Below, piece after piece: positions 424 to 64,000 of a DNA stretch of 64,000 bases. Source of the stretch: Alphaproteobacteria bacterium (GTDB taxonomy: Bacteria > Pseudomonadota > Alphaproteobacteria > UBA828); NCBI GenBank assembly GCA_965220745.1, contig CBDCQT010000006.1, positions 1 to 64,000 of the forward strand, in the 5' to 3' direction. Position numbers and translations under genes: made by a program. Each line of letters begins with the position of its first letter. The stretch's first letter is position 1. Below the pieces are notes generated by a model, which saw nothing but the letters and a program-made list of their open reading frames with translations, was not told the DNA's origin and ran no database searches.

Positions 424-3400
424 GAACGCATCGCGATCATTGGCATGGCCTGCCGCTTCCCCGGGGCGGAGGACGCCGAGGCGTTCTGGGCACAGCTTCG
501 CGCCGGGGCCGATCTGGTGACGAGGGGGCGCCCGGACGGGCTCTTCGTGGATGCGCAGACAGAGGCGGCGCGCCACTTCGGCGCCTACGTGGAAGGCCTC
601 GACCGCTTCGACGCGGGCTTTTTCCGGATCGCCCCGGTCGAGGCGGAACTGCTCGACCCCCAGCAGCGGATGCTGCTCGAGACCAGCTGGGCGGCGCTGG
701 AGGACGCCGGGATCGCCCCGGACCGGCTGCGCGGCAGCCGAACCGGAGTGTATGGAGGAGTATACAGCCACGACTACGCGGCTCTAGTCTCAACGCCCGG
801 TGACGATGCGTCAGCCAATCTCTACAGGTCCACCGGGATCGCCCCCTCGGCCGCTGTCGGCCGGGTCGCCTTCGCACTCGGCCTCGAGGGTCCGGCCATC
901 ACGGTGGACACGGCGTGTTCCTCTTCGCTGGTCGCGCTGCACCAAGCGGCGGCGGCGCTCCGCACGGGCGAGGCGGACCTGGCGCTGGCGGGAGGGGTGA
1001 ACGCGATCCTGACCTCCACCGCCACGCGGATCTTCACCGACGCGGGCATGCTCGCGGCGGATGGACGCTGCAAGACCTTCGACGCGGCAGCCGACGGCTT
1101 TGTGCGCGGCGAGGGCTGCGGGATGGTCGTGCTCAAGCGCCTCGCGGACGCGCAGGCGGCGGGAGACCGAATCCTCGCGGTCGTGCTCGGATCGGCTGTG
1201 AACCAGGATGGCGCGAGCGCCGGCCTGACCGTGCCGAACGGCCCGGCCCAAGAGCGCGTGATCGAGGAAGCGCTTGCGCGCTCGGGCGCGGAGCCCTCCT
1301 CGGTGGACTACCTGGAGGCGCACGGCACGGGCACCGAGCTGGGCGATCCGATCGAGGTCGAGGCGGCGGCGGCAGTGTACGGTCGCGGCCGCAGCGCGGA
1401 GCGCCCGCTGCTGGTCGGATCGGTGAAGACCAACGTGGGGCACCTGGAGGCGGCGGCGGGCGTGGCCGGGCTGATCAAGACGGTGCTCGCGATCCGCTCC
1501 GGGGTGATTCCGCGCCACCTGCACTTCGAGCGTCCCAACCCGCGGATGGAATGGGAGAAGCTTCCCGTCCGGGTGACATCGGAGACGACTCCCTGGCCGG
1601 AAGCGGAGCGGCCGCGGCGGGCCGCCGTCAGCTCCTTCGGGTACTCGGGTACCAACGCCCATGTCGTGATCGAGGGCTACACGGAGGAGCGCGAACCGTC
1701 GCCCATCGCGGTGCCGGCCCTGCCAGAGCCGGCCACGGATGGCGGCGGACCGCAGTCCGACGCGCCCCGCCAGCACCGCCTGCTGCCGCTGTCGGCGAAG
1801 TCCGGGCAAGCTCTCCGGGAGCTGGCCGACAGGTACCGGGCGGCCGTGTCGGAAGACACACCGCTGGCCGACATGTCTTGGACGGCCGGGACGGGCCGGA
1901 GCCACTTCCCGCACCGCTCGGGCATCGTGTTCAGCGATCGCGCCTCGCTGCAGGCGCAACTGGAGGTGGTGAGGCAGGGTGCCGTCGCGCCGGCCCGCGC
2001 CGGAAAGGTCGCCTTCCTTTACACCGGGCAGGGGAGCCAGTGGGCGGGCATGGGCCGGGAGCTCTACGGGGCCGAGCCGGTCTTCCGGGCGGTGCTGGAC
2101 CGATGCGAGGAGGTATTCCGCGCAGAGCGGGGTGCTTCGCTCCTGCAAGTGATGTTCGAGGATCCCGGCGGGCAGCAGTTGGATCGGACCGAGTGGACGC
2201 AGCCGGCGCTCTACGCGCTGGAGAGCGGTCTGACGGCCCTGTGGGCGAGCGTGGGGGTGCGGCCTGACATCGTGTTCGGGCACAGCGTGGGAGAGATCGC
2301 GGCAGCGGCTGCCGCGGGAGCCTTCGATCTCGAAAGCGGGATGCGGTTCGCCACGCGCCGGGGCGCGCTGATGGGTTCGCTGCCCGACGGAGGAGCGATG
2401 GCGGCGGTGTTCGCTTCAGCGGACCGCGTGCGCGATGCCCTCCCGGGGGGCATCTCTCTGGCCGCTGACAACGGTGCGCACCAACTGGTGAGCGGCCTTA
2501 GGGATGCGGTCGCCGCTCTAGGAGAGGAGCTGTCCCAAGCCGGCATCCGGGTGGAAATTCTCCGGACCAGCCACGCCTTCCACAGCGCGCTGATGGACCC
2601 CGTGCTGGCGGAACTGGAAGCGGCGGCACCCGAAGCCTCGGAACATTCGGTGCGGCTGGTTAGCGATGTGAGTGGCAGCGTTCTGGAGGACGCGCCCGAC
2701 GGAGCGTACTGGCGGCGCCAAGCGCGCGAGCCTGTCCAGTTCGCCACAGCGATACAAACCTTGGCGGAGTTGCAGGCGGTGCTCCTGCTGGAGATCGGGC
2801 CCCATGGCGTGCTGGGGCCGATGGCGGAACTCGGCTGGCCGCACACCGAGTCGCCTACCGTGATCCTCAGCCAAGGGCGCGGCGGAAACGGGGACTTTGT
2901 CGAGGCGGTGGCGGGCGCGTACGAAGCGGGCCTCGACATTGCCTTCGAGGGCCTGTTTGTTGGCGAACGCCGCCGCCGGATCTCGCTGCCTGCCTATCCT
3001 TTCCAGCGGAAACGTTACTGGATCCCCCCCTCCCAGCGTCCGGGGACTGAGGCGGGCCACGCGCTCCTCGGCGTGCAGCGGGATTCCCCGGATGGCGAGC
3101 ACTCGTTCGAGCGGCAGCTGCACGCCCGGGATCCGGCATGGCTGGCAGACCACCGGGTGTTCGGCGAAGTGGTCGCGCCGGGCGCGCTCTACGCGGCGCA
3201 GGTGGGCGAGGCGCTGCGGGAAACGCACCACGAACTTCCCGTCGTGCTCGAGAAGACCGCGATCAAGCGCCCGCTGGTGTTGGCGAGCAACGAGGGCCGG
3301 CTCGTTCAGGTGGTGCTCGGCAAGGACCGTTCTTGGAAGGTCGTCGGCAGGGCTGCCGGGGGGCAATGGGAGCCCCATGCCGAGGGTCGTTGGGCAGACC

Positions 3401-6400
3401 TCGCGGCGGCCGCCCCCGAGCCGGCGGAGCTCGGCGCGCTGCAGGGCGGCCTGGCGCAGCTGGAGGGGGACGCCGGGCCGGGCCTCGGCGGGTTCGAGCA
3501 CGGGCCGGCCTTCCGCGGCCTGGCCCGGCTCTGGTCGGGGCCCGGCGAAGCGCTGGGCGAGGTGCTGCTGCCGGCGGGAACGGACCGGCGCGGCCTGCTC
3601 GCGCATCCGGCCCTGCTCGACGCGTGCCTCCAGGTGCTGGGCGGCATCGAGGAAGTGGCCGAAGCAGGGGGCACGTGGCTGCCCGCCGGCTGGGACCGCT
3701 TCGTGCTGCGCGAGGCGCTGCCGGAGCGCGTCTTCTGCCGGGCGCTCGACCGCGGCGAGGAAGGGGGCGCGCGCAGGGCCGATCTGTGGCTCTACACGGA
3801 GACGGGCGAGGAGCTGGCGCGCATCGAGGGCTTCGCGCTCAGACGCGCGAGCCGGGCGGCCCTGGCGGGACACCGGGCGGAGGAGACGCTGCACGAGGTG
3901 GCGTGGCGCGAGGGGGCGCCGGTGGGACTCCGGGAGGCGGACTTCCTAGCAGGGCCCGAGCAGATCGAGAGCGGCCTGGGAACGCTGGAGGGCTACCTCG
4001 CGGCGGAGGGCGGCGACGCTGCGTCGCTGCCCGTGCTGGGGCGCGCGCTGGAGCGCGAGTCGCGCCGGCTGCTGCTGCGCGGGTTCCGGGAGCTGGGCTG
4101 GCGGCCCAGTCCGGGAGAGCGTTTCGAGACGGACGAGTTGCGCCGCAGGCTGAAGGTGACGGAGGATCACGGGCAGCTGTTCGGCCGCTTGCTGGCGGTG
4201 CTGGAGCAGATGGGGGTCTTGGGACGGGACCCGGCAGGCGGCTGGCAGGTGGCGGCCGCGCCGGAACTGCCCCCAGAGCCTGAGGCTGAGGCGGGACCGA
4301 CCGACTCAGAAGCCGATTCGATCGAGCTGGGCGTGCTGCGCCGCTGCGGGGAGTCGCTCGCCGAGGTGCTCCGCGGCCGCGCCGACGGGCTGGACCTGCT
4401 GTTCGGCGGTGAGCCGGGAGCGGCGAGCCTGTACCGCGAGTCGGCGGCCATGCGGGCGCTGAACCGCATGGCCGCCGAGGCCGTGCGCGCGGCGGCCGCG
4501 GGACTGCCCGAAGGCCGCCCGCTGCGGGCGGTCGAGATCGGCGCGGGCACGGGCGCGACCACGTCCGCCGTGTTGGACGCGCTGCCGGCCGGCCGGACCG
4601 AATACAGCTTCACCGACATCTCGAGCGCCTTCTTCCCGGAAGCCGAGCGGCGCTTCGGAGAACGCGGCGCGGAGTTGCGCTTCCGGGCGCTGGACATCGA
4701 GCGGGACCCGGCCGATCAGGGCTTCGCGCAGCACGGCTACGACTTCGTGATCGCGGCGAACGTGCTGCACGCGACGCGCGACCTGGGCGAGACGCTGGCC
4801 CACTGCCGGCGCCTGCTGGCCCCGTCGGGCGTGCTGGTGGCCGTCGAGGAAGCCGCCGCCAAGGAATGGCTGGACCTGACCTTCGGGCTGCTGCCCGGCT
4901 GGTGGCGCTTCCGGGACGCGTACCGCTCCGAGCACGCGCTGGTCGGGCCCCCGGTCTGGCGCCAGGCCCTGGCGGACGCCGGCTTCGGCGGCATGTCCCT
5001 GCTCGAGGATCCGTCCGGGGCGCTGCTGATCCTGGCGCGCGGGCCGTCGCAGGTGCAGGCCGGCCGGGGCCGTTTCGTGCTGGCGGGAACGGGAGCGTTG
5101 CCCGCGGCCCTCGAAGCGGAACTGCGCAAGCGGGGACAGGACGTGCTGGCGGGCCCGGCGGACGGGGGGCGGGCTTCATGGCGGTCATTCTTCAAGGCGC
5201 CGGGCGGGGAGGCGCCGCTGCGGGGCGTGGTGCACTTGGAAGGCGTGCGGCGCGACTCGGCGGGGCTCTCGACCGCAGAGCTGGCTGCGGACGCGGAGCG
5301 CATCGGGGCGAGCGCGCTGGCACTGGTCCAGGGGATGTCGGACGCCGGCGTGACGCCGGCGAGCGGCACTTGGTTCGTGACCCGGGGCGGGCAGGTGATC
5401 GGCCGGGAGCGCTGCGGCGCCCTGCCCGGTGCCATGCTGTGGGGCCTGGCGAGCGTGGTGGGGCTGGAGCACGCGGACCTGACCCCCCGCCTGCTGGACT
5501 TGGACCCGGAGGCGGACCCGGACGCCGGCACGCTGGCGGACGAGTTGCTGTTTGCAGACCGGGAGACGCGCGTCGCCCTGCGGGGCGGAGCCCGCCTGGT
5601 CGCCCGGCTGACCCGGTTCGCGGGGCGGGCCGAGCTCCCGGAAGGCGGCGGCTGGCGCTGGGCGGCCGATCCGGCCGGGGCGCTCGACGCGCTGCGCGTG
5701 GAGCAGGTGTCGAAGAACGCGGGTCCGGGCGAGGTGCTGGTGCGGGTCGAGGCGACCGGGGTGAACTTCCACGACGTGATGGTGGGGATGCAGGCCGTGG
5801 AGGCCGGCCAGCCGCTCGGCATCGAGCTGTGCGGGCGGGTCGTGGAGGCCGGCCAGGGCGTGCGGGAGCTGCAGGCGGGGGACCGGGTGGCGGGATTCGC
5901 CCGGGGAGCGTTCGGGCCCGAGGTGGTCACGCGGGCGGAGTGCGTCGTTCCGGCACCGCCGGGGCTGTCGGCGGCGGAGCTGGCGACCCTGCCGGTGGCG
6001 TCGGTGACCGCGGCGCTGGCCTTCGAGCACGCGGGCCTGGCAGAGGGGGCGCGGGTGCTGGTCCATGCCGGCGCGGGGGGCGTGGGCCACGCCGCGATCC
6101 GGCAGGCGCAGGCCGCGGGGCTGGAGGTGTACGCGACTGCGAGCGCGCCGAAGCGGGAGTACCTGCGTTCGCTGGGGGTCGCGGCGGTGTTCGACAGCCG
6201 CTCGCCGGCCTTCGGGAAGCAGGTCTTGGAAGCGACCGCGGGCGCGGGTGTGGAGATGGTGCTGAACAGCCTCTCCGGGGAGGGCTTGATCGAGGCCAGC
6301 CTGTCGTGCCTTGCGCCGGGCGGAGCCTTCGTAGAGCTCGGCAAGCGCAACATCCGCAGCGCCGGGGAGATGGCGGCCGAGCGCCCGGACGTTCGCTACC

Positions 6401-9400
6401 TGGAGTTGGCGCTGGACCGGCTCATGCGGGAGGAGCCGGAGCGGCTCGGGACGGTGCTGCGGAGGGTGATGGAGCGGGTCGCGTCGGGGCAGCTCGCGCC
6501 CCTGCCCTTCACCCGCTGGCCGCTGGCGGAGGCCGCCGCGGCGCTGGCGGAGCTGCAGGCGGCGCGCCATATCGGGAAGGTCGTGCTGGTGCCGTCGGCG
6601 CTGGCGGCGGGCCGGCTGCGGCAGGACCGCAGCTATCTGATCACGGGGGGGCTCGGAGGGGTCGGGCTGGAGGCGGCGCGCTGGCTGGCTGGGGCCGGGG
6701 CCGGGGCCATCGTGCTGAACGGGCGCCGCCCGCCAGAGGCGGCAGCGGCGGCGGCAGTGGCGGAACTCCGGGCGGGCGGCGCGGAGGTGCGCGTCGAGAT
6801 CGCGGACGTGACGGACGGGGAGGCGGTGGCGGGCATGCTCCAACGCATCGACGCCGAGCTGCCGCCGCTGGCGGGGGTGATCCACAGCGTGGGAGCGCTG
6901 GCGGACGCGGCGCTGACGAACCAGGACTGGGAGCGCTTCGAGCGCGTGCTGGGGCCCAAGGCGCTGGGGGCCTGGCGGCTGCACCGGGCGACGCTCGACC
7001 GGCAGCTGGACCTGTTCGTGCTCTTCTCCAGCCTGACGGGCGTGGTCGGGTATCCGGGGCTGGCCAACTACGCGGCGGCCAACGCCTTCCTGGACCAGCT
7101 GGCGCGGCACCGCCGGGCGCTCGGCCTGCCCGGTCAGGCCATTGCGTGGGGGCCATGGTCGGAGACCGGCAAAGCCGAACAGCGTCGCGAACTCATCGCA
7201 ACACAGCTAGCCCGCTACGGCGAGGAATGGATCGCTCCCGAACAAGGCATCCAGACGTTGGCGCGGCTCGTGCGCGAGGACGTGGGGACCAGCGTGGTGG
7301 CGTCCGTCGACTGGCCGGCGCTTCCGGTGCGGGCGCCTTGGCTGGCGGAGGTGATGGGACGCCCGGAGATCCGCTCGGTCGACGGCCCGGACGACCTTCT
7401 AGGCCGACTCCGGGGACCCGCTGCCGAGGAACGCCGGGATGGACTGGTCAGGTTCCTCGAGGAACAGGTGGTCCAGGTCCTGCGGCTGCGCTCCGCCCCG
7501 CCGTCCTCGGCGGGATTCTTCGAGCTGGGCATGGACTCGCTGATGGCGGTCGAGCTTCGCAACCGCCTGAACCGGGCCTTCCGCGGCGCGTTCGTTGTCT
7601 CCAACACCGCAGTGTTCGATCATCCCGACATTGCCCGCTTGGCGGAACACCTTGCGAGCAAGTTTGAGGGCGTGTCGCCGGAGACGCCGCGGGCGCGCGC
7701 CCTGCCGTCCGACCGACGCCGCGACGATGGACGAATCGCGATTGTCGGCATGGCCTGCCGATTCCCCGGGGCGGAGGACGCCGAGGCGTTTTGGGCGCAG
7801 CTTTGCGCCGGGGCGGACTTGGTAATTAGGGGGCGCCCGGACGGGCTCTTCGTGGATGCCGAGACGGAGGCGGCACGCCACTTCGGCGCCTACGTGGAAG
7901 GCCTAGACCGCTTCGACGCGGGCTTTTTCCGGATCGCCCCGGTCGAGGCGGAACTGCTCGACCCCCAGCAGCGGATGCTGCTCGAGACCAGCTGGGCGGC
8001 GCTGGAGGACGCCGGGATCGCCCCGGACCGGCTGCGCGGCAGCCGAACCGGGGTGTATGGCGGAGTATGCAGCCACGACTACGCGGCCCTGGTCTCAACA
8101 CCCGGCGACGATGCGTCAGCCAATCTCTACAGGTCCACCGGGATCGCCCCCTCGGCCGCTGTCGGCCGGGTCGCCTTCGCGCTCGGCCTCGAGGGTCCGG
8201 CCATCACGGTGGACACGGCGTGTTCCTCTTCGCTGGTCGCGCTGCACCAAGCGGCGGCGGCGCTCCGGGCGGGCGAGGCGGACCTGGCGCTGGCGGGAGG
8301 GGTGAACGCGATCCTGACCTCCACCGCCACGCGGATCTTCACCGACGCGGGCATGCTCGCCGCGGATGGACGCTGCAAGACCTTCGACGCGGCAGCCGAC
8401 GGCTTTGTGCGCGGCGAGGGCTGCGGGATGGTTGTGCTCAAGCGCCTCGCGGACGCGGAGGCGGCGGGAGACCGAATCCTCGCGGTCGTGCTCGGATCGG
8501 CTGTGAACCAGGATGGCGCGAGCGCCGGCCTGACCGTGCCGAACGGCCCGGCCCAAGAGCGCGTGATCGAGGAAGCGCTTGCGCGCTCGGGCGCGGAGCC
8601 CTCCTCGGTGGACTACTTGGAGGCGCACGGCACGGGCACCGAGCTGGGCGATCCGATCGAGGTCGAGGCGGCGGCGGCGGTATACGGCCGTGGCCGGGGC
8701 GCGGACCGCCCGCTGCTGGTCGGATCGGTGAAGACGAACGTGGGCCATCTCGAGGCGGCGGCGGGCGTGGCCGGACTGATCAAGGCGGTGCTCGCGATCC
8801 GCTCCGGGCTGATTCCGCGCCACCTGCACTTCGAGCGTCCCAACCCGCGGATGGACTGGGAGAAGCTTCCCGTCCGGGTGACATCGGAGACGACTCCCTG
8901 GCCGGAAGCGGAGCGGCCGCGGCGTGCCGCCGTCAGCTCTTTCGGGTACTCGGGCACCAACGCCCATGTCGTGATCGAGGGCTATGCCGAGGAGCGCGAA
9001 CCGCCACGCATCGCGGTGCCCGCGCTGCCGGAGTCGGGTGCTGATGGCCGCGTCCCGCAGGCCGACGCTCCCCGCCAGCACCGCCTGCTGCCGCTCTCGG
9101 CGAAGTCCGAGCAAGCTCTCCGGCAGCTGGCCGCCAGCTACCGGGCGGCCGTGTCGGAAGACACACCGCTGGCGGACATGTCTTGGACGGCCGGGACGGG
9201 CCGGAGCCACTTCCCGCACCGCTCGGGCATCGTGTTCAGCGATCACGCCTCGCTGCGGGAGCAGCTGGAGGTGGTGAGGCTGGGTGCCGCCGCGTCGTCC
9301 CGCGCTGGAAAGGTTGCCTTCCTTTACACCGGACAGGGGAGCCAGTGGGCGGGCATGGGCCGGGAGCTCTATGCGACCGAGCCGGTGTTCCGGGCGGTTC

Positions 9401-12400
9401 TGGACCGATGCGAGGAGGTATTCCGCGCAGAGCGAGACGCGTCTCTGCTGCAGGTGATGTTCGAGGATCTTGGCGGGCAGCAGTTGGATCGGACCGAGTG
9501 GACGCAGCCGGCGCTCTACGCGCTGGAGAGCGGTCTGACGGCCCTGTGGGCGAGCGTGGGGGTGCGGCCTGACATCGTGTTCGGGCACAGCGTGGGAGAG
9601 ATCGCGGCAGCGGCTGCCGCGGGAGCCTTTGATCTCGAGACCGGGATGCGGTTCGCCACGCGCCGGGGCGCGCTGATGGGTTCGCTCTCCGAGGGGGGGG
9701 CGATGGCGGCGGTGTTCGCTTCGGCGGAGCGGGTCGCTGCCAGCCTTGACGGTGCGGTGTGCCTGGCCGCCGATAACAGCACTCACCAAGTCGTGAGCGG
9801 CCCGGAGGCCGACATCGAGGCACTGCTGAAGAGGTTCGAAGAGGACGGTCTGCGCGTGGAGCGTCTGCGCACCAGCCACGGCTTCCACAGCGCGCTGATG
9901 GATCCGGTGTTGGCGGAGCTGGAAGCGGCGGCGCCCGGGGCCTCGGCACCGGCGGTGCGACTGGTGAGCGATGTGAGCGGGCAGGTGCTGGAAGGGGCTC
10001 CCGACGGAGCGTACTGGCGGCGCCAGGCGCGCGAGCCGGTCCAGTTCGCGACGGCGCTGCGGACGCTGGCGGACTTGCAGGCGGGGCTTTTGCTGGAGAT
10101 CGGGCCGCATGGCGTGCTGGGTCCGATGGCGGCGCTGGGCTGGCCGCACGGCGAGGCGCCTGTGGTGATCCCGAGCCAGCAGCGCGGCGGCAACGGAGAC
10201 TTCGTGGGGGCGGTGGCGGGCGCGTACGAGGCGGGTCTGGACATTGCCTTCGAGGGCCTGTTTGTCGGGGAGCGGCGGCGGCGGGTCTCGCTGCCCGCCT
10301 ATCCCTTCCAGCGGGAGCGCCACTGGGTCTCTCGTTCCCGGCGTTTACAGACTGAGATCGGAAATGTGCTCCTCGGTGTGCAGCGGGATTCCCCGGGTGG
10401 CGAGCACTCCTTCGAGAAACAGCTGCGCAGTCGGGATCCGGCGTGGCTCGCCGACCACCGGGTGTTCGGCGAAGTCGTCGCACCCGGCGCACTGTACGCG
10501 GCGCAGGCGAGTGAAGCCCTCCAAGAAACGCATCACGAACTTCCTGTCGTCCTCGAGGAAACCGCGATTACGCGCCCGCTCGTGCTGTCGGGCGACAAGG
10601 GGCGTCTGGTCCAAGTGGTGCTCGGCGAGGAGGGCGCTTGGAAAGTCGTCAGCAGGGATGCGGGCGGGCGATGGGAGACACATGCCGAAGGCCGCTGGGC
10701 ATCTCTCGCCGGGGCCACGCCCGAGTCGGCAGACCTCGGTGCGTTGAAGTCCAGCCTCGCACGGCTGGCTCCGGACTTCGAGTCGGTACTGGTTGGCCTT
10801 GAGTACGGGCCGGCCTTCCGCGGTCTGGGCCAGCTCTGGTCGGGTCACGGTGAAGCACTGGGCGAGGTGCTGCTGCCTGCCGGCGTGGATCACAGGAATC
10901 TTCTCGTGCACCCGGCACTGCTCGACGCGTGTTTCCAGGTACTGGGCGCTGTCCCGGAGCTGGCGGAAGCAGGAGGGACATGGCTGCCGATCGGCTGGGA
11001 CCGCCTCGTCCTGCGCGACGCGCTGCCGGCGCGCATCTTCTGCCGGGCACTCGACCGCGGAGAGGGCGGGCAGACACGCAAGGCAGACCTCTGGCTCTAC
11101 ACGGAGACGGGCGATGAGCTTGCGCACATCGAGGGCTTCACGCTTAGACAGGCGAACCGGACGGTCCTGTCGGGTCGCCGGGTGGAGGAGGCGCTGCACG
11201 AGGTGGTGTGGCGCGAAGGGGCGGCGGTCGGATTCCGGCAGGCGGACTTCCTAGCCGCACCAAAGGAGATCGAGTCCGGCCTAGGGGGCCTGAACGGATA
11301 TCTCGAGGCGGAGGGCCGCGACGGGGCTTCGCTCGCAGCGTTGGGGCGCAAGCTGGAGCTTGAGTCCCGTCGGCTGCTACTGCGGGGATTCCGGGAACTG
11401 GGATGGGAGCCTAGTGCGGGAGACCGCTTCGAGACGGACGAGCTGCGCCGCCAGCTCAGGGTTACAGAGGATCACCGGCGGCTGTTCGGCCGCTTGCTGT
11501 CGGTGCTGGAGGAGATGGGACTCCTCGAGCGGGAATCGGCGGGTGGCTGGCAGGTTACAACCACGCCGGAAGCGCCCCCGGAGCCTGAGGCGGGACCGAC
11601 CGACTCCGCAGCCGATTCCATCGAGCTGGGCCTGCTCCGCCGCTGCGGGGAGTCGCTCGCCGACGTGCTCCGCGGCCGCGCCGATGCGCTGGACCTGCTC
11701 TTGGGCGGAGAACCGGGAGCGGCGAGCCTGTACCGCGAGTCACCCGCCATGCGCGCGCTGAACCGCATGGTCGCTGACGCTGTGCGCGCAGCGGTCGCCG
11801 GACTGCCGGAAGGCCGGCCGCTGCGGGTGATCGAGCTTGGCGCAGGGACGGGCGCAACCTCCTCCTCCCTTCTAGACGTCCTGCCGGCCGACCAGACCGA
11901 GTTTACCTTCACCGACATCTCGACGGACTCGGTCACTGATGCTGAGCAGCGGTTCGGCGAGCGGGGCGCGGGCCTTCGCTTCCTAGCGCTCGACATCGAA
12001 CGGGACCCGGCGGATCAGGGCTTCGCACTCCACGGCTACGACCTCGTGGTCGCCGCGAACATCTTGCACGCGACCCGCGACTTGGGTGAGACGCTCGCCC
12101 ACTGCAGGCGCCTCCTGGCCCCGTCGGGCGTGCTGGTGGCCGTCGAGGAAGCCGCACGCAAGGAGTGGCTGGACCTGACCTTCGGACTGCTGCCCGGCTG
12201 GTGGCGCTTCCAAGATGCGTATCGCTCCGACCACGCGCTGGTCGAGCCCCCCGTCTGGCGACAGGCCATCGCGGACGCCGGATTTGCGGAGACTTCCCTG
12301 CTAGAGGATCCTTCCGGGGCGCTGCTGATCCTGGCGCGGGGGCCGGCGGAGGCGAGGGCCGAAGGCGGGCTGTTCGTGCTGGCCGGGAAGAGTGAGCTGG

Positions 12401-51400: not shown

Positions 51401-54400
51401 CCGACGTAACGGACGGGGAGGCGATGGCGGGATTGCTCCAGCGCATGGACGCCGAGCTCCCGCCACTGGCGGGCGTGATCCACAGTGTGGGAGCGCTCGC
51501 CGACGCGGCGTTGACGAACCAAGACTGGGAGCGGTTCGAGCGCGTCCTCGGGCCCAAGGTACTGGGAGCTTGGCGACTCCATCGGGCCACGCTCGAGCGG
51601 GAGCTCGATCTGTTCGTCGTTTTCTCCAGCGGGTCGGGAGTCCTCGGGAATCCGGGGCAGGCGAATTACGCGGCGGCGAACGCTTTCCTTGACCAGCTGG
51701 CGCGGCACCGGCGGTCGCTCGGCCTGCCGGGTCAGGCCATTGCTTGGGGGCCGTGGTCGGGCATCGGGGTCGCCGAGGAGCAGCGCGAACGCCTAGAGGT
51801 GGGGGCTGCTTGGTCCGTCGAAGAGTGGATCACTCCCGAGCAAGGCATCCGTGTCTTGGCTCGGCTCATCCGCGAGGATGTCGCAGCCAGCGTTGTGGGG
51901 TCCTTCGATTGGTCGGTGCTTCCGTTGCGGGCAGCGTGGCTCGAAGAAGTGATAGAGCGCGAAGAGGCCCTCTCGCCCGCTGCTCCGGTCGATCTCCTCG
52001 GGCGGCTCCGGGGACTCGCCCCCGGGGAACGCCGGGATGAACTGATCCGGTTCCTCGGGGAACAGCTGGTCGAGATCCTGCGCCTGCGCTCCGCTCCGTC
52101 GCCCTCGGCGGGATTCTTCGAGCTGGGCATGGATTCGCTGATGGCGGTCGAGCTTCGCAACCGCTTGAACCGGGCCTTCCGCGGCGCGTTCGTCGTGTCC
52201 AACACCGCGGTGTTCGATCATCCCGACATCGCGCGTCTGGCGGAACACCTCGCAGAAATGCTAGCCGGCGTGGAGCCGGAGGTGCCGCAGGTGCGAGCCT
52301 TGCCCGCCGCCCGGCAGCGCGGCGACGAGCGTATTGCGATCGTCGGCATGGCCTGCCGCTTCCCCGGGGCAGAGGATGCCGAGGAATTCTGGGCGCAGCT
52401 TTGTTCCGGGGCCGATCTGGTAACTAGGGGGCGTCCGGACGGCCTCTTCGTGGATGCCGAGACGCAGGCGGCGCGCCCCTTCGGCGCCTATGTGGAGGGC
52501 GTCGACCGCTTTGATGCGGGCTTTTTCCGGATCGCCCCGGTAGAGGCGGAGCTGCTGGATCCCCAGCAGCGGATGCTGCTCGAAACCAGCTGGGCGGCGC
52601 TGGAGGACGCCGGGATCGCCCCGGACGGGCTGCGCGGCAGCCGGACCGGGGTGTACGGCGGGTTCATGGCGAGCGATTACCAAGCTGTCCTGGCCGGGTC
52701 CGCGGAGGATCCATCGACCAACATCTACAGATCCACCGGTATCTCCGGATCTACAGCGATTGGCCGGATCGCCTTCGCGCTTGGTCTCGAGGGTCCGGCC
52801 ATGACGGTGGACACGGCGTGTTCCTCGTCGCTGGTCGCGCTGCACCAGGCGTCGGCGGCGCTCCGCGCAGGCGAAGCGGACCTAGCGCTGGCGGGAGGAG
52901 TGAACGCGATCTTGAGGTCGGAGCCGACCCGAATCTTCACTGACGCCGGCATGCTCGCGGCAGATGGACGCTGCAAGACATTCGACGAGGCGGCCGACGG
53001 CTACGTACGGGGCGAGGGATGCGGGATGGTTGTGCTCAAGCGCCTGGCCGACGCGGAGGCAGCCGGAGACCGGATCCTCGCGGTTGTACTCGGATCGGCG
53101 GTGAACCAAGACGGCGCAAGCGCCGGCCTGACGGTGCCGAACGGCCCGGCCCAAGAGCGCGTGATCGAAGAGGCGCTCGCGCGGGCGGGCGTCGAGGCCT
53201 CCTCGGTCGACTACTTGGAGGCGCACGGCACGGGCACCGAACTGGGCGATCCGGTCGAGGTAGCAGCGGCGGCTTCGGTGTACGGCCGGGGCCGGAGCCC
53301 GGATCGCCCGCTGCTGATCGGATCCGTAAAGACGAACGTGGGCCACTTGGAGGCGGCGGCGGGCGTGGCCGGGCTGATCAAGGCGGTGCTCGCGATCCGT
53401 TCCGGGGTGATTCCGCGCCACCTGCACTTCGAGCGGCCCAACCCGCGGATGGACTGGGAGAAGCTTCCCATCCGGGTGACGTCGGAGGCAACCTCATGGC
53501 CGGAATCGGAGCGGCCGCGGCGGGCCGCCGTCAGCTCCTTCGGATACTCGGGCACCAATGCCCATGTCGTGATCGAGAGCTATGCGGAGGAGCGCGACCC
53601 ACCGCTCGTAGAGGCTGGGACACCGCCGGAAGCGGAGGCAGATGAGCGCACCCCGCAGGCGGACGCGCCCCGCCGGAGCCGTCTGCTACCGATCTCGGCG
53701 AAATCCGCAGATGCGCTCCGTCAGATGGCCGGCCGCTACCGGGCCGCCCTCTCGGAGGACATTCCGCTCGCCGACATGGCGTGGACGGCGGGGGTGGGGC
53801 GGAGCCATTTCCGCTACCGCTCGGGCCTCGTATTTCAAGACCGGGCCTCGCTGGCGGAGCAGCTGGAGGTGGTCGGACAGGGAGGCGTGGCGGCCACGCA
53901 ACGAACGGTAGCGTTCCTTTACACCGGGCAGGGGAGCCAGTGGGCGGGCATGGGCCGGGAACTCTATGAGGCCGAGCCGGTCTTCCGGGCAGTTCTGGAC
54001 CGCTGCGAGGAAGTGTTCCGCGCAGAGCGCGGCAGGGCGCTTCTTCCGGTGATCTTCGAGGATGCCGAGCGGCTGGAGCGGACCGAATGGACGCAGCCGG
54101 CGCTTTACGCGCTGGAGAGCGGGCTGACCGCGCTGTGGGCCAGCGTGGGGGTGCGGCCCGACATCGTGTTCGGGCACAGCGTGGGAGAGATCGCGGCAGC
54201 GGCTGCGGCGGGAGCCTTTGATCTCGAGAGCGGGATGCGGTTCGCCACGCGCCGGGGCGCGCTGATGGGTTCGCTGCCCGACGGGGGAGCGATGGCGGCG
54301 GTATTCACAACCCGCGACCGCGTCGCCCCCGTATTCGGGGGTGAGGTGTCCCTGGCCGCCGACAACGGCGCGCACCAAGTGGTGAGCGGTCCGCAGGACG

Positions 54401-57400
54401 CGATCGCCGCCTTGGCCGAGGACCTCTCCAAGGAAGGGATTCGGGTGCAACCCCTCCAGACCAGCCACGCCTTCCACAGCGCACTGATGGATCCGGTGCT
54501 GGAGGAACTGGAAGCGGCGGCTCCTAGGTCCTCGGTACTGGCGGCAACGCTGGTGAGCGATGTCAGCGGGCGTGTCCTCGAAGGAGTCCCGGACGGAGCG
54601 TACTGGCGACGCCAGGCGCGCGAGCCGGTCCAATTCGCCGCCGCGGTGCGGACGCTGGCAGACTTGGAGGCGGGGCTTCTGCTGGAGATCGGGCCCCATG
54701 GCGTGCTGGGCCCGATGGCGGCGCTGGGCTGGCCGCAAAGCGAGGCGCCAACGGTGATTTCGAGCCAGCGGCGCGGCTCGAACGGGGACTTTGTCGGCGC
54801 AGTGGCGAGTGCGTACGAGGCGGGTCTGGACATTGCCTTCGAGGGCCTGTTTGTCGGGGAACGGCGGCGGCGGGTCTCGTTGCCCGCCTACGCGTTCCAG
54901 CGGCAGCGTTACTGGACCTCCGCTTCCCCGCGCCGGCAGTCGGAGGCGGGACACGCGCTGCTCGGGGTGCGTCGGGATTCCCCGGATGGCGAGCATTCCT
55001 TCGAGCGGCAGCTGCACAGCCGGGATCCGGCCTGGCTGGCAGACCACCGGGTGTACGGAAACGTTGTAGCGCCGGGTGCGCTCTACGCGGCGCAGGTGGC
55101 CGAAGCGCTTCGCGAAACGCACCACGGAGTCCAAGCCGTGCTCGAAGAGAGCGTGATCACGCGCCCGCTCAGGTTGTCGGACGATGAGGGCCGGCTGGTC
55201 CAGGTCGTGCTTGATGAGGACGGCGCTTGGAGGGTTGTCAGCAAGGATGCGGGCGGGCGATGGGAGACGCACGCCGCAGGCCGCTGGGCACCGCACGCCG
55301 CAGTCCCGTCCGAGCCGGCAGATCCCGCCGTGCTGCAGGAGGGCCTCGCCGAGGCGGACGTTGCAGGCGTGTACTTGGAGTTGGGCGCCTCTGGACTCGA
55401 CTATGGTCCCGCCTTCCGCGGCCTGGTCCGGCTCTGGTCGGGGCCTGGCGAAGCCTTGGGCGAGCTGCTGCTGCCGGAGGGATTGGAGAACCGGAACCTT
55501 CTCGTGCACCCGGCACTGCTCGACGCATGTTTCCGGGTGCTGGGGGGCGTTCCGGAAATGGCGCGACCAGGGGGGACGTGGCTGCCGGTCGGCTGGGACC
55601 GCTTTGTCCTGCACGAGGCGCTGCCGGAGCGGGTCTTCTGCCGGGCACTGGATCGCGGCGAGGACGGGCAGAAGCGCACAGCAGACTTCTGGATTTATAC
55701 GGAGACGGGCGAGGAGCTGGCGCGCATCGAGGGCTTCGCGCTCAGACAGGCGAGCCGGTCGGCGCTGTCAGGTGACCGGGCAGAGGAGATGCTGCACGAA
55801 GTGGTGTGGCGCGAGGGGGCAGCGGCGGGACTCCGGGAGGCGGAATTCCTCGCCGGGCCGGAAGCGATCGCTTCGGGCCTGGGAGGGCTGGACGGATATC
55901 TCGACGCGGAGTCCCGCAACGGGGCGTCCCTCTCCGCCCTCGGGAGCGAGCTGGAGCGTGAGGCTCGCCGGCTGCTGCTGCGCGGATTCCGGGAGTTGGG
56001 ATGGGACCCCAAGACGGGAGACCGTTTCGAGACGGACGAGTTGCGCCATCGGCTGAGGGTGACAGAGGATCACGGGCGGCTGTTCGGCCGGTTGTTGTCG
56101 GTGCTGGAGGAGATGGGACTTCTCGACCGGGAATCGGCGGGCGGCTGGCGCGTGGCAGCCGCGCCCGAAGCGCCTGGGGAGCTGGAGGCGGGGCCGGCTG
56201 ACTCCCAAGCCGAGTCCGTCGAGCTGGGCCTGCTCCGCCGCTGCGGGGAGTCGCTCGCCGACGTGCTCCGCGGCCGCGCCGATGCGCTGGACCTGCTCTT
56301 CGGCGGCGAGCCGGGAGCGGCGAGCCTGTACCGCGAGTCCCCCGCCGTGCGGGCGTTGAACCGCATGGTCGCCGACGCCGTGCGCGCAGCGGGGGCCGGC
56401 TTGCCGGAAAGCCGGCCGCTGCGGGTGATCGAGGTCGGCGCAGGGACGGGCGCGACCGCCGCCGCCCTCTTGGGCGTGCTGCCGGCCGACCGGAGCGAAT
56501 ACACCTTCACCGACATCTCGACGGACTCGTTCCCGGACGCGGAGCGGGAGTTCGGCGAGCGGGGCGCGGGCCTTCGCTTCCTAGCGCTCGACATCGAACG
56601 AGATCCGACGGATCAGGGGTTCGCTCCCCACGGCTACGACCTCGTGATTGCCGCGAACGTCTTGCATGCAACCCGAGACCTAGGTGAGACGCTCGCTCAC
56701 TGCCGGCGCCTGCTGGCCCCGTCGGGCGTGCTGGTGGCCGTCGAGGAGACCGCCCGCAAGGAGTGGCTGGACCTGACCTTCGGACTGCTGCCCGGCTGGT
56801 GGCGCTTCCAAGATGCGTATCGCTCCGACCACGCGCTGGTCGGGCCCCCCGTCTGGCGCCAAGCCCTCGCGGACGCCGGATTCGCGGAGACCTCCCTGCT
56901 GGAGGATCCGTCTGGGGCGCTTCTGATCCTGGCCCGGGGGCCGTCGGAGGCGGGGGCCGAAGGCGGGCTGTTCGTGCTGGCCGGGGAGAGCGAGCTGGGC
57001 GCCGAGTTGGCGGCGGAGCTGGAGCGCCGGGGCAGCCGGGCGGTCGAAGGCCCCACGGAGGCCGACCGGCAGGCGTGGCGCGGGTTCTTCGAGTCCTTGC
57101 CGGGCGCGCTTCCGCTGCGCGGCGTGGCGTATCTGGGCGGGCTCCGGCCAGACGGTGCCGAGCTCTCGACTCGGGATCTGGCAGCGGAGCTGCAGGCAGT
57201 CGATGCGGGAGCGCTGGCGCTGGTCCAGGGGATGTCGGACGCGGGCGTGTCGCCGGTGAGCGGCACTTGGTTCGTGACCCGGGGCGGCCAGGTGATCGAG
57301 CGGGAGCGCGGCGGCGCGCTCGCGGGTGCCTCGCTGTGGGGCTTCGCCAGCGTGGTGGAGTTGGAGCACGGGGATATGACGCCGCGCCTGCTGGACTTGG

Positions 57401-60400
57401 ATCCCGAGTCTCCCCTGTCCACCGGCGCGCTCGCCGACGAGTTGCTCTTCCCCGACCGCGAGACGCGCGTCGCCCGCCGGGGCGGGGACCGCTTGGTGGC
57501 CCGGCTGACGCGCCTCGCCGGGCGGGCTGAGGACTCGGCGGAAGCCGGGCCGGGCGAGGCCCGGCTGCGCGGGGACCGCAGCTATCTGATCACGGGCGGG
57601 CTCGGGGGGCTCGGGCTGGAGGTGGCGCGCTGGCTGGCCGGGGCGGGCGCCGGGGCCATCGTGCTGAACGGACGTCGCGCGCCCGACACGGACACCGAGG
57701 CGCTGATCGCGGAGCTCCGGCAGGGCAGCGCCGAAGTGCGCGTGGAGATTGCCGACGTCACGGACGAGGATGCGGTGGCGGGGATGCTCGGGCGGATCGA
57801 TGCCGAGCTGCCGCCGCTGGCGGGCGTGATCCACAGCGTCGGCGCGCTTGCCGACGGGGCATTGACAAACCAAGACTGGGAGCGCTTCGAGCGGGTGCTG
57901 GGGCCCAAGATCCTAGGGGCTTGGCGGCTGCACCGGGCTACGCTCGACCGGCAGCTGGACCTGTTCGTCCTCTTCTCCAGCCTGGCGGGCGTGGTCGGAA
58001 ACCCGGGACAGGCCAACTACGCGGCGGCCAACGCCTTCCTCGACCAGCTGGCAAGGCACCGGAGGGCGCTGGGCCTGCCGGGTCAGGCCGTTGCGTGGGG
58101 ACCGTGGTCGGGCATCGGCGAGGCCGAGGAGCAGCGTGAGCGTATCGGGATGCAGCCCGCCGACTCGGGCGAGGAATGGATCGCTCCCGAACAGGGCATC
58201 CGTGCGTTGGCGCGGCTCGTGCGCGAGGACATCGGAACCAGTGTGGCGGCATTCGTCGACTGGGCTGCGCTTTCGGTGCGGGCACCCTGGCTAGCGGAAG
58301 TGGCGGGGCGCGAAGAGGACCGCGCTTCCGCCGCTCCGGGCGATCTGCTCAAGCGGCTCGGGGGCCTCGCCGTCGGGGAGCGCCGCGAAGAACTGATCCG
58401 GTTCCTCGAGGAACAGGTGGTCCAAGTTTTGCGGCTGCGATCCGCACCGTCGTCCACGGCAGGATTCTTCGAGCTGGGCATGGACTCGCTGATGGCGGTC
58501 GAGCTTCGCAACCGCCTGAACCGGGCCTTCCGGGGCGCGTTCGTGGTCTCGAACACTGCAGTGTTCGATTATCCCGACATCGCCCGCCTGGCAGAACACC
58601 TTGCGGGCAAGCTTGCGGGAATGGCTCTGGAAGCACCGCATGCGCGTGCTGCCCTGCCCCCCGTCCGGCACCGGGCGGACGAACGCATCGCGATCGTCGG
58701 CATGGCCTGCCGCTTCCCCGGGGCACCGGATGTCGAGGAATTTTGGGCACAGCTTCACTCCGGGGCCGATATGGTGACGAGGGGCCGCCCGGACGGGCTG
58801 TTCGTGGATGCCGAGACGGAGGCTGCGCGCCCCTTCGGCGCTTATGTGGAGGGCCTCGACCACTTCGACGCGGGCTTCTTCCGGATCGCCCCGGTCGAGG
58901 CAGAACTCCTCGACCCCCAGCAGCGGATGCTGCTCGAGACCAGCTGGGCGGCGCTTGAAGACGCCGGCATCGCTCCGAACGGGCTGCGGGGCACCCGAAC
59001 CGGGGTGTATGGCGGGGTCTCAATGAGCGATTACCACGCCCTTATCGCAGAGGCCGCGGACAACCCGTCGGCCAACCTTTACCGCTCTACAGGCGCCACC
59101 CCCTCGATCGCGGTGGGCCGAGTAGCCTTCGCCCTAGGCCTCGAGGGTCCGGCGATCACGATTGACACCGCGTGTTCCTCGTCCTTGGTCGCGCTTCACC
59201 AAGCGGCAGCGGCGCTGCGCGCGGGCGAGGCGGACCTGGCGCTGGCGGGAGGAGTGAACGCGATCCTGCGGTCAGAGCCCACCAGTCTCCTGACCGACGC
59301 CGGCATGCTCGCCGCAGATGGGCGTTGCAAGACTTTCGACGCGGCGGCCGATGGTTACGTACGGGGCGAGGGATGCGGGATGGTGGTGCTCAAACGCCTC
59401 GCGGACGCGGAGGCGGCAGGGGACCGGATCCTCGCGGTTGTGCTCGGGTCGGCCGTGAACCAAGACGGCGCGAGCGCCGGCCTGACCGTGCCGAACGGCC
59501 CGGCCCAAGAGCGGGTGATCGAGGAGGCGCTCGCGCGGGCGGGCGTCGAGGCCTCCTCGGTCGACTACTTGGAGGCACACGGCACGGGCACCGAACTGGG
59601 CGATCCGGTAGAAGTGGAGGCGGCTGCTGGGGTGTACGGCCGCGGCCGGAGCGCGGACCGCCCGCTGCTGATCGGCTCGGTGAAGACGAACGTGGGCCAC
59701 CTCGAGGCGGCGGCGGGCGTGGCCGGGCTGATCAAGGCGGTGCTGGCGATCCGTTCCGGGGTGATTCCGCGCCACCTGCACTTCGAGCGGCCCAACCCGC
59801 GGATGGACTGGGAGAAGCTCCCCGTCCGGGTGACGTCGGAAGCGACGCCCTGGCCGGACGAGGAGCGGCCGCGGCGAGCCGCCGTCAGCTCCTTCGGATA
59901 CTCCGGAACCAATGCCCACGCCGTGGTCGAGGGATATGCAGAAGAGCCCGAACCGCCGCCCATTGAAGTGCCCGCACTTCCGGCGTCGGGTGCGGATGAC
60001 CGCGTCTCGCAGGCTGACGCGCCCCGCGTGCACCGCCTACTCCCGCTCTCGGCGAAGTCCCAAGACGCTCTCCGGCGGCTGGCTGATCGATACCAAGCCA
60101 TGCTCTCGGACGATACCCCGCTTGCCGACATGGCTTGGACGGCGAGCACCGGCCGGAGTCATTTCCACTGCCGTTCCGGCCTTGTGTTCAGCGATCGCGC
60201 CTCGCTGCAGGAGCAGCTGGAGGTGGTGAGGCAGGGAGTTGTGGCGGCGTCCACGCAAGGAACGGTCGCGTTCCTCTACACCGGGCAGGGGAGCCAGTGG
60301 GCGGGCATGGGCCGGGAGCTCTATGAGGCCGAGCCGGTCTTCCGGGCGGTTCTGGACCGCTGCGAGGAAGTGTTCCGCGCGGAGCGCGGCAGGGCGCTTC

Positions 60401-63400: not shown

Positions 63401-64000
63401 TCCAAGGCCCCGCGAAGGCTGATCGCGAGGCGTGGCGCGGGTTCTTCGAGTCCTTGCCGGGGGCGCTTCCGCTGCGCGGCGTGGCGTACCTAGGCGGGCT
63501 CCGGCCAGACGGTGCCGAGCTTTCGACCCGGGAGCTGGAAGCGGAGCTGCAGGCAGTCGATGCGGGCGCGCTGGCGCTGGTCCAAGGGATGTCGGACGCG
63601 GGCGTGTCGCCGGTCAGCGGCACTTGGTTCGTGACCCGGGGCGGCCAGGTGATCGAGCGGGAGCGCTGCGGCGCGCTCGCGGGTGCCTCGCTGTGGGGCT
63701 TCGCCAGCGTGGTGGAGCTGGAGCACGGGGATCTGACGCCGCGCCTGCTGGACCTGGATCCGGAGTCTCCCCCGTCCGCCGGCGCGCTCGCCGACGAGCT
63801 GCTCTTCCCCGACCGCGAGACGCGCGTCGCCCGCCGGGGCGGGGACCGCTTGGTGGCCCGGCTGACGCGCCTCGCCGGGCGGGCGGAGGATTCGGCGGAA
63901 TCCGGGCCGGGCGAGGCGCGGCTGCGCGGGGACCGCAGCTATCTGATCACGGGAGGGCTCGGAGGGCTCGGGCTGGAGGTGGCGCGCTGGCTGGCCGGGG
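1..64000 (+). CDS. Giant multimodular cis-AT type I polyketide synthase, internal fragment with no start or stop in the window (>=21,333 aa)
   Basis: Frame +1 begins VDWPALPVRAPWLAEV...GFFELGMDSLMAVELRNRL (ACP) and ends RSYLITGGLGGLGLEVARWLAG (KR). All ten KS Cys codons (916, 8221, 14599, 20953, 27313, 33658, 40045, 46432, 52819, 59173) are in frame +1. The ORF track lists only frame +2/+3 and minus-strand ORFs, consistent with no stop in frame +1. Confidence 0.96.
424..7728 (+). other. PKS module 1: KS-AT-DH-cMT-psiKR-ER-KR-ACP (fully reducing, C-methylating)
   Basis: KS: DTACSSS (Cys 916), HGTGT (1321), NVGHLE (His 1441). AT: GQGSQW, GHSVG (2278), HAFH (2572). DH: HRVFGEVVAP (His 3151), DACLQ. 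cMT: EIGAGTGAT (4534), ANVLHAT (His 4768). ER about 5653-6588. KR: TGGLGGVG (~6643), GLANYAAAN (Tyr 7069). ACP Ser 7537. Confidence 0.93.
5653..6588 (+). other. Enoylreductase domain, the only ER in the window
   Basis: GPGEVLVRVEATGVNFHDV, GDRVAG, NADPH-binding VLVHAGAGGVGHAA (~6055-6096), VLNSL, FVELGK, ARHIGKVVL. It accounts for module 1 being about 940 nt longer than the others. Confidence 0.9.
7729..14106 (+). other. PKS module 2: KS-AT-DH-cMT-psiKR-KR-ACP
   Basis: KS Cys 8221. AT GHSVG 9583, HGFH 9877. DH His 10456, DACFQ. cMT ELGAGTGAT ~11833. KR NYAAAN Tyr 13420. ACP Ser 13915. No ER. Confidence 0.92.
14107..20460 (+). other. PKS module 3: KS-AT-DH-cMT-psiKR-KR(His)-ACP
   Basis: KS Cys 14599. 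AT GHS 15955, QAFH 16249. DH His 16828. cMT EVGAGTGAT 18214. KR QANHAAAN His 19801. ACP Ser 20269. Confidence 0.92.
20461..26820 (+). other. PKS module 4: KS-AT-DH(inactive?)-cMT-psiKR-KR(His)-ACP
   Basis: KS Cys 20953. AT GHS 22309, HAFH 22603. DH WLADFRVFG with Phe at 23182 in place of His. cMT 24574. KR His 26161. ACP Ser 26629. Confidence 0.92.
26821..33165 (+). other. PKS module 5: KS-AT-DH-cMT-psiKR-KR-ACP
   Basis: KS Cys 27313. AT HAFH 28963. DH His 29542. cMT 30919. KR NYAAAN Tyr 32506. ACP Ser 32974. Confidence 0.92.
33166..39552 (+). other. PKS module 6: KS-AT-DH-cMT-psiKR-KR(His)-ACP
   Basis: KS Cys 33658. AT QAFH 35308. DH His 35887. cMT 37279. KR His 38866. ACP Ser 39361. Confidence 0.92.
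39553..45939 (+). other. PKS module 7: KS-AT-DH-cMT-psiKR-KR(His)-ACP
   Basis: KS Cys 40045. AT QAFH 41695. DH His 42274. cMT 43666. KR SSLKGVVGSPGQANHAAAN His 45253. ACP Ser 45748. Confidence 0.92.
45940..52326 (+). other. PKS module 8: KS-AT-DH-cMT-psiKR-KR-ACP
   Basis: KS Cys 46432. AT HAFH 48091. DH His 48670, DACFH 49147. cMT 50056. KR Tyr 51667. ACP Ser 52135. Confidence 0.92.
52327..58680 (+). other. PKS module 9: KS-AT-DH-cMT-psiKR-KR-ACP
   Basis: KS Cys 52819. AT HAFH 54466. DH His 55045, DACFR 55522. cMT 56431. KR Tyr 58018. ACP Ser 58486. Confidence 0.92.
58681..64000 (+). other. PKS module 10, cut by the window end: KS-AT-DH-cMT-psiKR-KR start
   Basis: KS Cys 59173. AT QAFH 60823. 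DH His 61402, DACFR 61879. cMT 62788. KR SYLITGGLGGLG from 63937. No ER. Confidence 0.92.

Follow-up and report, generated by a model that had tools for sequence, protein, structure and literature searches.

The window analyzed here, the first 64,000 nucleotides of contig C6 (CBDCQT010000006.1) in the bin G000 (GCA_965220745.1), lies as a whole within one plus-strand open frame without a stop codon, which encodes part of a giant polyketide synthase (PKS). The frame runs from the first contig base to a stop at contig base 80,169 and specifies at least 26,722 amino acids (aa), or 2.84 MDa on the contig. Our reading, to which we give a probability of roughly 0.6, is that the gene encodes a single polypeptide of about 30,000 aa which would act as a colinear cis-acyltransferase assembly line and make a C28 acid carrying hydroxyls at C3 and C19, a hexaene, a diene and six to nine methyl branches. 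The probable product is a hydroxy fatty acid of an undescribed kind, methyl-branched and polyunsaturated, in which the positions of the methyls would be set by two sites in each module, the S-adenosylmethionine (SAM)-binding motif of the embedded C-methyltransferase (cMT) and the catalytic residue of the ketoreductase (KR).

The modules are named M1 to M12 in contig order, and E2 onward by their place as extensions in the complete line. After the SAM-binding Asp most of the cMTs read xGFF or xAFF, and those of M2 (DS at 11926-11931), M8 (50149-50154) and M9 (56524-56529) read xDS, with loss of the motif-II Phe that is retained in CurJ, PsoF and DisA. At the catalytic position of the KR, M3, M4, M6, M7, M10 and M11 have His and M1, M2, M5, M8, M9 and M12 have Tyr, the two states being one base change apart (CAC/TAC). 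The first 420 bases hold the tail of a preceding module (the end of a KR plus an acyl carrier protein (ACP) with the motif GMDSL). M1 (E2; 421..7725), with the order ketosynthase (KS), acyltransferase (AT), dehydratase (DH), cMT, enoylreductase (ER), KR and ACP, is fully reducing; its cMT motif is intact (AFF) and its KR has Tyr at 7069, and its methylation is uncertain. A -CH=CH- unit is predicted for M2 (E3; 7726..14103; KR Tyr 13420), where the DH is intact, and likewise for M8 (E9; 45937..52323; Tyr 51667) and M9 (E10; 52324..58677; Tyr 58018). Intact cMTs with His KRs predict -CH=C(CH3)- for M3 (E4; 14104..20457; His 19801; DH intact), M6 (E7; 33163..39549; His 38866), M7 (E8; 39550..45936; His 45253) and M10 (E11; 58678..65031, passing the window end at 64000; His at contig base 64375). 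M4 (E5; 20458..26817; His 26161) also has an intact cMT, and as its DH His is replaced by Phe at about 23182 it is predicted to leave -CH(OH)-CH(CH3)-. For M5 (E6; 26818..33162), with an intact motif and Tyr at 32506, the unit is probably -CH=CH-, with some uncertainty; in the genomes G002, G063 and G005 the orthologous module is DS/Tyr. Past the window end on C6, M11 (contig 65032-72330) has a cMT, an ER and a His KR, M12 (72331-77769) has no cMT, a DH with Tyr for His and a Tyr KR, and a terminal KS0-AT0 (77770-80169) follows in which the KS keeps Cys and has lost both His residues and the AT has lost its Ser.

The two sites are strongly coupled. Across 67 modules, those of the window gene together with five orthologous loci, an intact motif was found with His in 34 and with Tyr in five, DS with His in two and with Tyr in 20, no cMT with Tyr in four, and other states in two; the rule that intact goes with His and DS with Tyr held in 54 of the 61 modules classifiable for both sites (Fisher p 1.5e-9, which is overstated since modules are not independent). 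Among 1,479 polymorphic columns solely the KR Tyr/His column, some 500 aa away from the DS motif, tracked DS strongly (r2 0.58), and in the same scan nothing else, including any signature of methylation state in the downstream KS, rose above 0.31. Held-out modules from G063 and from fragments gave 14 intact/His, two intact/Tyr, ten damaged/Tyr and no damaged/His, with one left unclassified, and the near-conspecific genome G074 gave six, two, three and none in the same order. On a tree of whole modules the two traits changed 14 and 16 times separately and 19 times jointly, and about seven independent pairs differed in the same direction, none or one in the opposite direction and three or four not at all (median p 0.016). 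The column scan did not support linkage as an explanation for why DS and Tyr go together, and the tree tests exclude it weakly. Lesions in core motifs were present in 11 of 22 DS-type cMTs and in two of 41 others. The association extends to the modules of 80 other PKS proteins from a protein search (cyanobacterial, myxobacterial and actinobacterial), where KR His occurred in 30/58 modules with a cMT and 0/117 without one, to other multimodular proteins of the Sup lineage discussed below (34/47 modules with a cMT), and to single-module SupA-like proteins, which were intact/His in 72 of 73 cases. Even beside an intact cMT motif (M5 of this gene and of G074; E9 of G063), the window gene, G002, G063 and G074 retain Tyr at positions E3, E6, E9, E10 and E13, a pattern pointing to the KR residue as the primary switch; together these states suggest that about half of the repeated units add a methyl. 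A single-sequence AlphaFold model of the M8 cMT was unusable (predicted local distance difference test score 43.5).

Several results weigh against this reading. The rule fails in seven of the 61 modules, M1 and M5 of the window among them, and in a paralogous cluster of G074 two of the four damaged motifs scored are accompanied by His. The p value of the independent pairs ranges from 0.016 to 0.125 for the whole module, and the three sub-region trees give medians of 0.06 to 0.25. General decay of the DS-type cMTs was not found: overall they are no more diverged than the others (over 86 conserved columns, 4.2 changes against 3.7; p 0.27), and they mostly keep the His/Glu dyad. The methyltransferase section and passages of PMC7327777 name the cMT His as the reliable off switch and make no mention of a His-for-Tyr KR. 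Outside the lineage 19 of the 58 cMT modules retain KR Tyr, eight have Ala and one has Arg, and within the Sup lineage KR His was seen in 5/25 modules lacking a cMT. Intact/His modules have DH lesions more often than DS/Tyr modules do (8/34 versus 1/20), as a dead KR would likewise predict, and G001 has no DH lesion at the position equivalent to E5. Finally, the 5' end is absent here and G074 has 12 rather than 13 modules, so that the chain length is assumed.

Some of these points would be accommodated if all the cMTs were active, in which case the line would give an unbroken run of -CH=C(CH3)- with 12 methyls (C40H64O4), and the DS and Tyr/His states would alter stereochemistry or rate only. 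The window cMTs all keep GxGxG, Tyr, the His/Glu dyad and GWWRF, and both the equal overall conservation of the two classes and the Tyr KRs of unrelated cMT modules fit this explanation; we nonetheless consider it unlikely, in that the DS cMTs lack the Phe shared by CurJ, PsoF and DisA, are enriched in core-motif lesions and have the same KR state as the modules without a cMT, all four of which are Tyr. It is more doubtful still that methylation follows the cMT motif alone, with M1 and M5 methylating fully and the KR residue changing to compensate for substrate fit. Intact motifs do stand beside Tyr in M5, in G074 and in one module of G063, and early ER modules are often intact/Tyr, but the persistence of Tyr at E3, E6, E9, E10 and E13 makes the KR residue the more conserved of the two.

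Several features indicate that the His KR probably still reduces. The NADPH motif and the Lys, Ser and Asn residues are preserved in His KRs, an intact ER adjoins them in M11 as well as in G002, G003 and G063, and 72 of the 73 single-module SupA-like proteins combine a His KR with a DH and an ER, on which ground His as a knock-out was rejected (the product of SupA itself is not demonstrated in the sources read). Were the His KRs dead, alpha-methyl or gem-dimethyl beta-ketones would stand at these positions, double bonds would come from the Tyr modules only and the chain would be a polyketone-enone. A KR requires Tyr according to textbook knowledge, the distribution of DH lesions points the same way, McyD-like cMT modules carry Ala at the KR catalytic position, and module 2 of the epothilone synthase Q9L8C6 has Arg in a KR which is reportedly inactive. 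We regard this outcome as improbable but not negligible, given the architecture of the SupA-like proteins, the neighbouring ERs and the intact cofactor and catalytic motifs. The DH lesions, moreover, are not scattered but recur at two fixed positions, E5 and E12 (His to Phe, Tyr, Cys or Asn; Asp to His), and the E5 DH, that of M4, is inactivated in G002, G063, G074 and G005 as well, by three different substitutions. Loss at fixed positions by differing substitutions implies that the other DHs are in use, in which case it is what selection for hydroxyls would be expected to produce.

On the proposed reading, then, a loading unit known from orthologues only (a KS with Ser for Cys, a dead AT and an ACP) would supply an acetyl starter, and thirteen malonyl extensions would follow. 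Alpha-methylation must precede ketoreduction. The modules that methylate would be those in which the cMT retains an intact SAM-binding motif and the KR carries His at the position of the catalytic Tyr. Such a KR would still reduce, but slowly or only after alpha-methylation, so that the cMT acts first, while a Tyr KR would reduce at once and bypass the cMT, which would then tend to lose its SAM site and stay as a structural part. Modules with a dead DH would leave hydroxyls, the terminal KS, with Cys kept and both His lost, would relay the chain onto a free ACP, and its release or transfer would fall to an alpha/beta hydrolase. The predicted C28 acid has a conjugated hexaene at C6-C17, a diene at C20-C23 and hydroxyls at C3 and C19, with methyls predicted firmly at C4, C6, C12, C14, C18 and C20, uncertainly at C16, C24 and C26, and absent at C2, C8, C10 and C22; by hand arithmetic its formula would lie between C34H52O4 and C37H58O4. 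No tailoring genes were seen among the flanking open reading frames (ORFs), as judged from ORF listings and a Pfam scan of 13 proteins, which makes a lipid acyl chain or a small bioactive acid the likeliest role of the product.

The sequence-only reading of the window had proposed that every module methylates, giving a run of -CH=C(CH3)- units interrupted by oxygenated positions where DH or KR are altered. Methylation in every module is not supported, given the loss of the motif-II Phe in M2, M8 and M9, and is uncertain in M1 and M5 with their Tyr KRs; a mostly ER-less polyene line is supported and the unbroken run is unlikely. Oxygenation through an altered DH is supported for M4, and oxygenation through altered KRs is not, His being the normal state in 72/73 SupA-like proteins. 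Of the loading, release and tailoring genes that it proposed to look for in the flanks, a loading unit was located in the orthologues and a hydrolase downstream, and none of the tailoring kind was seen among the flanking ORFs. As for its suggestion of an undescribed pathway, a characterised product was not found, and the lineage itself is known.

Domain motifs agree with the assignments on which the prediction depends. In each of the ten window modules ExGAGTG, TDIS, N(V/I)LHAT and GLLxGWWRF lie between DH and KR, and these motifs together with the module spacing bear out the placing of a cMT there by the sequence-only reading. All eleven cMTs on the contig have the catalytic His/Glu dyad, and the motif-II Phe is lost in three of the eleven. 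EWTQPAL and GHSVG were found in the ATs of all ten window modules and YASH in none, with HAFH in M1, M4, M5, M8 and M9, HGFH in M2 and QAFH in M3, M6, M7 and M10; all 12 contig modules have their own AT with active-site and malonyl fingerprints (GHSVG with (H/Q)AFH or HGFH). The malonyl-type ATs and the SAM-derived branches proposed from the sequence alone are both supported. The QAFH variant (16249, 35308, 41695 and 60823) is limited to M3, M6, M7 and M10, all of them intact-cMT/His modules, G002 reads HAFH at the same places, and QAFH has probably spread among the modules by gene conversion. A G(A/T)LAD loop occurs in 10/10 KRs, that of M10 just beyond base 64000, and the A-type Trp is absent, in agreement with the B-type-like KRs proposed from the sequence alone. 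The sole ER within the window (5722..6588; Pfam ADH_N and ADH_zinc_N_2) is in M1; these Pfam domains are absent in M3, and M2-M10 show a clean deletion of about 310 aa. The claim that the ER is confined to M1 and lost afterwards is therefore correct inside the window, but on the contig an ER returns in M11 (two of 12 modules).

Modules M1-M11 are mutually 77-90% identical at the protein level. Within the gene no 60-base seed at 98% identity recurs, and the independent genome G074 is colinear with the window gene over 68,271 bases at 96.6% identity; with the absence of near-identical internal repeats and with colinear orthologues in G074 and G002, chance, an assembly artefact and a collapsed repeat were rejected. 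The window is the start of C6, so that the 5' end of the gene is cut off by the contig start, and a search of the other 12 contigs of the bin for further pieces of the PKS gene found none. Comparison with G002 showed that M1 is not the first module of the protein: over its initial 140 aa the frame shares 88% identity with the close of G002's opening extension module, and in 11 of 12 comparisons the best G002 counterpart of window module n was module n+2, which together place M1-M10 as extensions E2-E11. If the gene is built like that of G002, the loading unit and most of one ER module are missing at the contig start and the full protein would have about 30,000 aa, an estimate only, as G074 has one module fewer.

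In the species genomes 47 related loci were returned, 40 at 69-92% identity from Bryobacterales, Terriglobia, Acidobacteriota and one Rhodothermales record, and seven at 50-61% identity, including Binatia and Latescibacterota records; a metagenome contig scan added at least three distant loci at 36-38%. Complete single frames encode 29,674 aa in G002, 29,669 aa in G063 and 27,259 aa in G074, and the Rhodothermales genome G003 has two complete copies of 27,735 and 27,729 aa. Complete orthologues open with a loading unit of some 1,000 aa, in which Ser replaces the KS Cys, the AT has no Ser and an ACP is present; 12-13 extension modules and a terminal KS0-AT0 come after it. The central hydroxyl-hexaene pattern is common to the orthologues, also across phyla, where orthology is by pattern only, and strains diverge towards the two ends of the line, where E12 of G002 and G063 carries a dead DH in place of the ER, the last module of G074 keeps the DH His, and the G003 copies have other early modules. 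These two copies (C1:1979675-2062870 and 3102535-3185712) have differing module programmes on one chromosome, and their elevated GC content at third codon positions relative to the flanks, together with flanks rich in insertion elements, suggests that G003 gained the giant PKS horizontally. Close matches (E below 1e-200) were found in 7/77 genomes of the family of G002.

The distribution bears on whether the gene is an artefact of assembly or a decaying, unexpressed relic. C6 is probably mis-binned and the gene is truncated at its start, the G001 orthologue (C1:3051683-3141129) is split by two insertion elements, the flanks are rich in transposases and one early module of G063 has a KS missing its Cys motif. 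Against this stand the unbroken frames of 27,259-29,674 aa, five in all, that four other genomes contain, the colinearity, the lack of near-identical internal repeats and the presence of related sequence in sponge metagenome runs, and we consider an artefact or relic very improbable.

Phylogeny points to the Sup lineage. In a KS tree the extension KSs share a clade (0.992) with KS1 of single-module proteins of the architecture KS-AT-DH-cMT-ER-KR-ACP-KS-AT, which we take to be that of SupA, and the terminal KS is sister (0.974) to KS2 of the same SupA-like proteins. The protein searches returned no record named SupA, and the clade label rests on architecture and habitat. From its sequence, the window gene appears to be a module-expanded Sup-type PKS, predicted to have arisen by repeated duplication of a Sup-type module. 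The protein search covered collection entries of up to 5,000 residues, within which the best matches to named characterised proteins were 31-40% identical.

The Sup (sponge symbiont ubiquitous) PKSs, with SupA and its partners, are said to have been reported by Fieseler in 2007 and Hochmuth in 2010. SupA reportedly has a fully reducing module, matched here by M1 and M11 only (nine of the ten window modules have no ER), a terminal second KS with a dead AT, matched at contig 77770-80169, and ACP, hydrolase and phosphopantetheinyl transferase (PPTase) genes as neighbours. Of these neighbours, C6 has an alpha/beta hydrolase downstream of the PKS (contig approximately 80.7-81.7 kb), after which mobile-element genes follow. 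An 89-aa free ACP lies close to 6/6 complete-length loci, its usual upstream site falling off C6; one or two hydrolases flank these loci (one is broken), and a PPTase adjoins one giant locus only, the first G003 copy. Shared with Sup are a malonyl AT with embedded cMT, the His KR, the terminal KS-AT0 and the sponge habitat, and probably also the KS lineage, the free ACP and the alpha/beta hydrolase. Published passages describe the Sup PKSs as small enzymes with a single module, found ubiquitously among the symbionts of sponges, and branched fatty acids are their proposed products (PMC3908369, PMC4245539, PMC9864124). By contrast with these monomodular enzymes (PMC4245539), whose proposed products are reportedly saturated and mid-chain-branched, the window gene unites 12-13 modules and a loading unit in one chain, lacks an ER in most of the modules and ends in a KS missing both His.

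Other giant or cMT-containing systems offer partial parallels. SA1_PKS from a Discodermia dissoluta symbiont, which Schirmer is said to have reported in 2005 as a 25,572-aa, fully reducing frame with a predicted multimethyl-branched fatty acid product, is a precedent for a giant sponge-symbiont PKS protein; compared by description only, it reportedly has an ER in all modules and the window contig has one in 2/12. The best structural relative of the cMT is CurJ of the curacin pathway (PDB 5THY; E 1.3e-63), with Tyr, His/Glu and motif-II Phe at the same positions. In CurJ-type systems the cMT modules are said to stand singly in mixed pathways, and here there are ten or more per polypeptide. The predicted product resembles what is reported of the myxobacterial polyene acids myxalamid and stipiamide (a branched tail, then -CH=C(CH3)-CH(OH)-CH(CH3)-, then a hexaene), which are said to be made with methylmalonyl ATs by several proteins with an NRPS (non-ribosomal peptide synthetase)-reductase end, none of which is found in the window system. 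As a giant single-chain PKS, the protein, of which the contig part alone has 2.84 MDa, is like PKZILLA-1 and PKZILLA-2 of Prymnesium parvum (3.2 MDa for PKZILLA-2), which differ in being eukaryotic, trans-AT and directed to a polyether precursor (bioRxiv 10.1101/2024.01.29.577497). Neither the giant PKS, nor SA1_PKS in any detail, nor the His-for-Tyr KR rule was found described in a literature search in which subscription papers were mostly outside reach, and the rule may be in print.

The assignment of C6 to an alphaproteobacterium probably needs correction. The bin is alphaproteobacterial (GcrA on contig C10; contamination 5.18%), but C6 outside the PKS has a tetranucleotide correlation with it of 0.967-0.971, under all 101 control chunks (minimum 0.975), and holds second copies of gatA, clpB and rsmI that share only 53-55% identity with those native to the bin. 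The C6 gatA shares 90% identity with that of a Bryobacterales genome and 53% with the native copy, and 4 kb of housekeeping DNA on C6 match G074, a member of G002's family, at 98%. An alphaproteobacterial origin was rejected on these grounds; C6 most likely derives from Bryobacterales (Acidobacteriota) and was mistakenly binned with an alphaproteobacterial genome, and findings on it should not be credited to the organism of the bin. Of 20 listed sequencing runs holding all or part of the stretch, nine are DNA-type records labelled as sponge metagenome; the three runs examined, one of them labelled by organism code, cover 30/30 bins of the stretch. Contigs of one RNA run extend over 29/30 bins, which cannot show transcription as DNA may be present. 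By the run labels the host is a sponge symbiont, as for Sup PKSs.

Further Sup-type loci and neighbouring genes were noted in passing. The bin has a Sup cluster of its own, with a single-module SupA-like PKS of 3,455 aa and a His KR (G000:C5:214284-224651) beside a hydrolase, a free ACP, a PPTase and a permease-like gene. The second giant Sup-lineage cluster of G074 (C3:1953505-2046529) comprises frames of 19,855 and 11,170 aa with modules of about 2,550 aa, 54-57% identical to M1 and nearly all with an ER, some damaged cMT motifs, a free ACP and two hydrolases; it is a candidate relative of SA1_PKS, whose reported description it fits better than the ER-poor window gene does. The Binatia genome G004 (C1:3885235-3961135) has four Sup-lineage PKS genes (8,263, 6,211, 6,843 and 2,787 aa) with a different module programme, between an upstream gene that looks like an acyl-AMP ligase and a downstream hydrolase. 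Judged by eye, a 1,071-aa gene like a resistance-nodulation-division (RND) transporter lies 3-4 kb upstream of the PKS in G001 and G074, and an RND-like operon is present on C6 at 110763-116604, 30 kb downstream of the PKS; these genes are a possible export route. Downstream of the cluster there are also a group II intron reverse transcriptase (L002:1965-3446) and a 1,753-aa DEAD/UvrD double helicase (L002:5478-10739), and transposases are abundant in the flanks.

The wider proposition, that sponge-symbiont lines of 27,000-30,000 aa make new polymethyl hexaene hydroxy acids and that a KR His/Tyr codon decides as a general rule whether the cMT acts, is put forward tentatively and at somewhat less than even odds. 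The genes add bacterial proteins of about 3 MDa, which are fragmented by short-read assembly and absent from the length-capped protein collection, and their near-identical modules constitute a natural series for the competition between cMT and KR. If the reading is right, there would be a concrete UV-visible compound to seek in sponges and a first structure-level handle on the chemistry of the Sup lineage. The His/Tyr coupling would then improve product prediction for cis-AT cMT modules, in which His KRs would no longer be scored as dead, and methyl patterns would be readable from sequence and could be reset by a point change.

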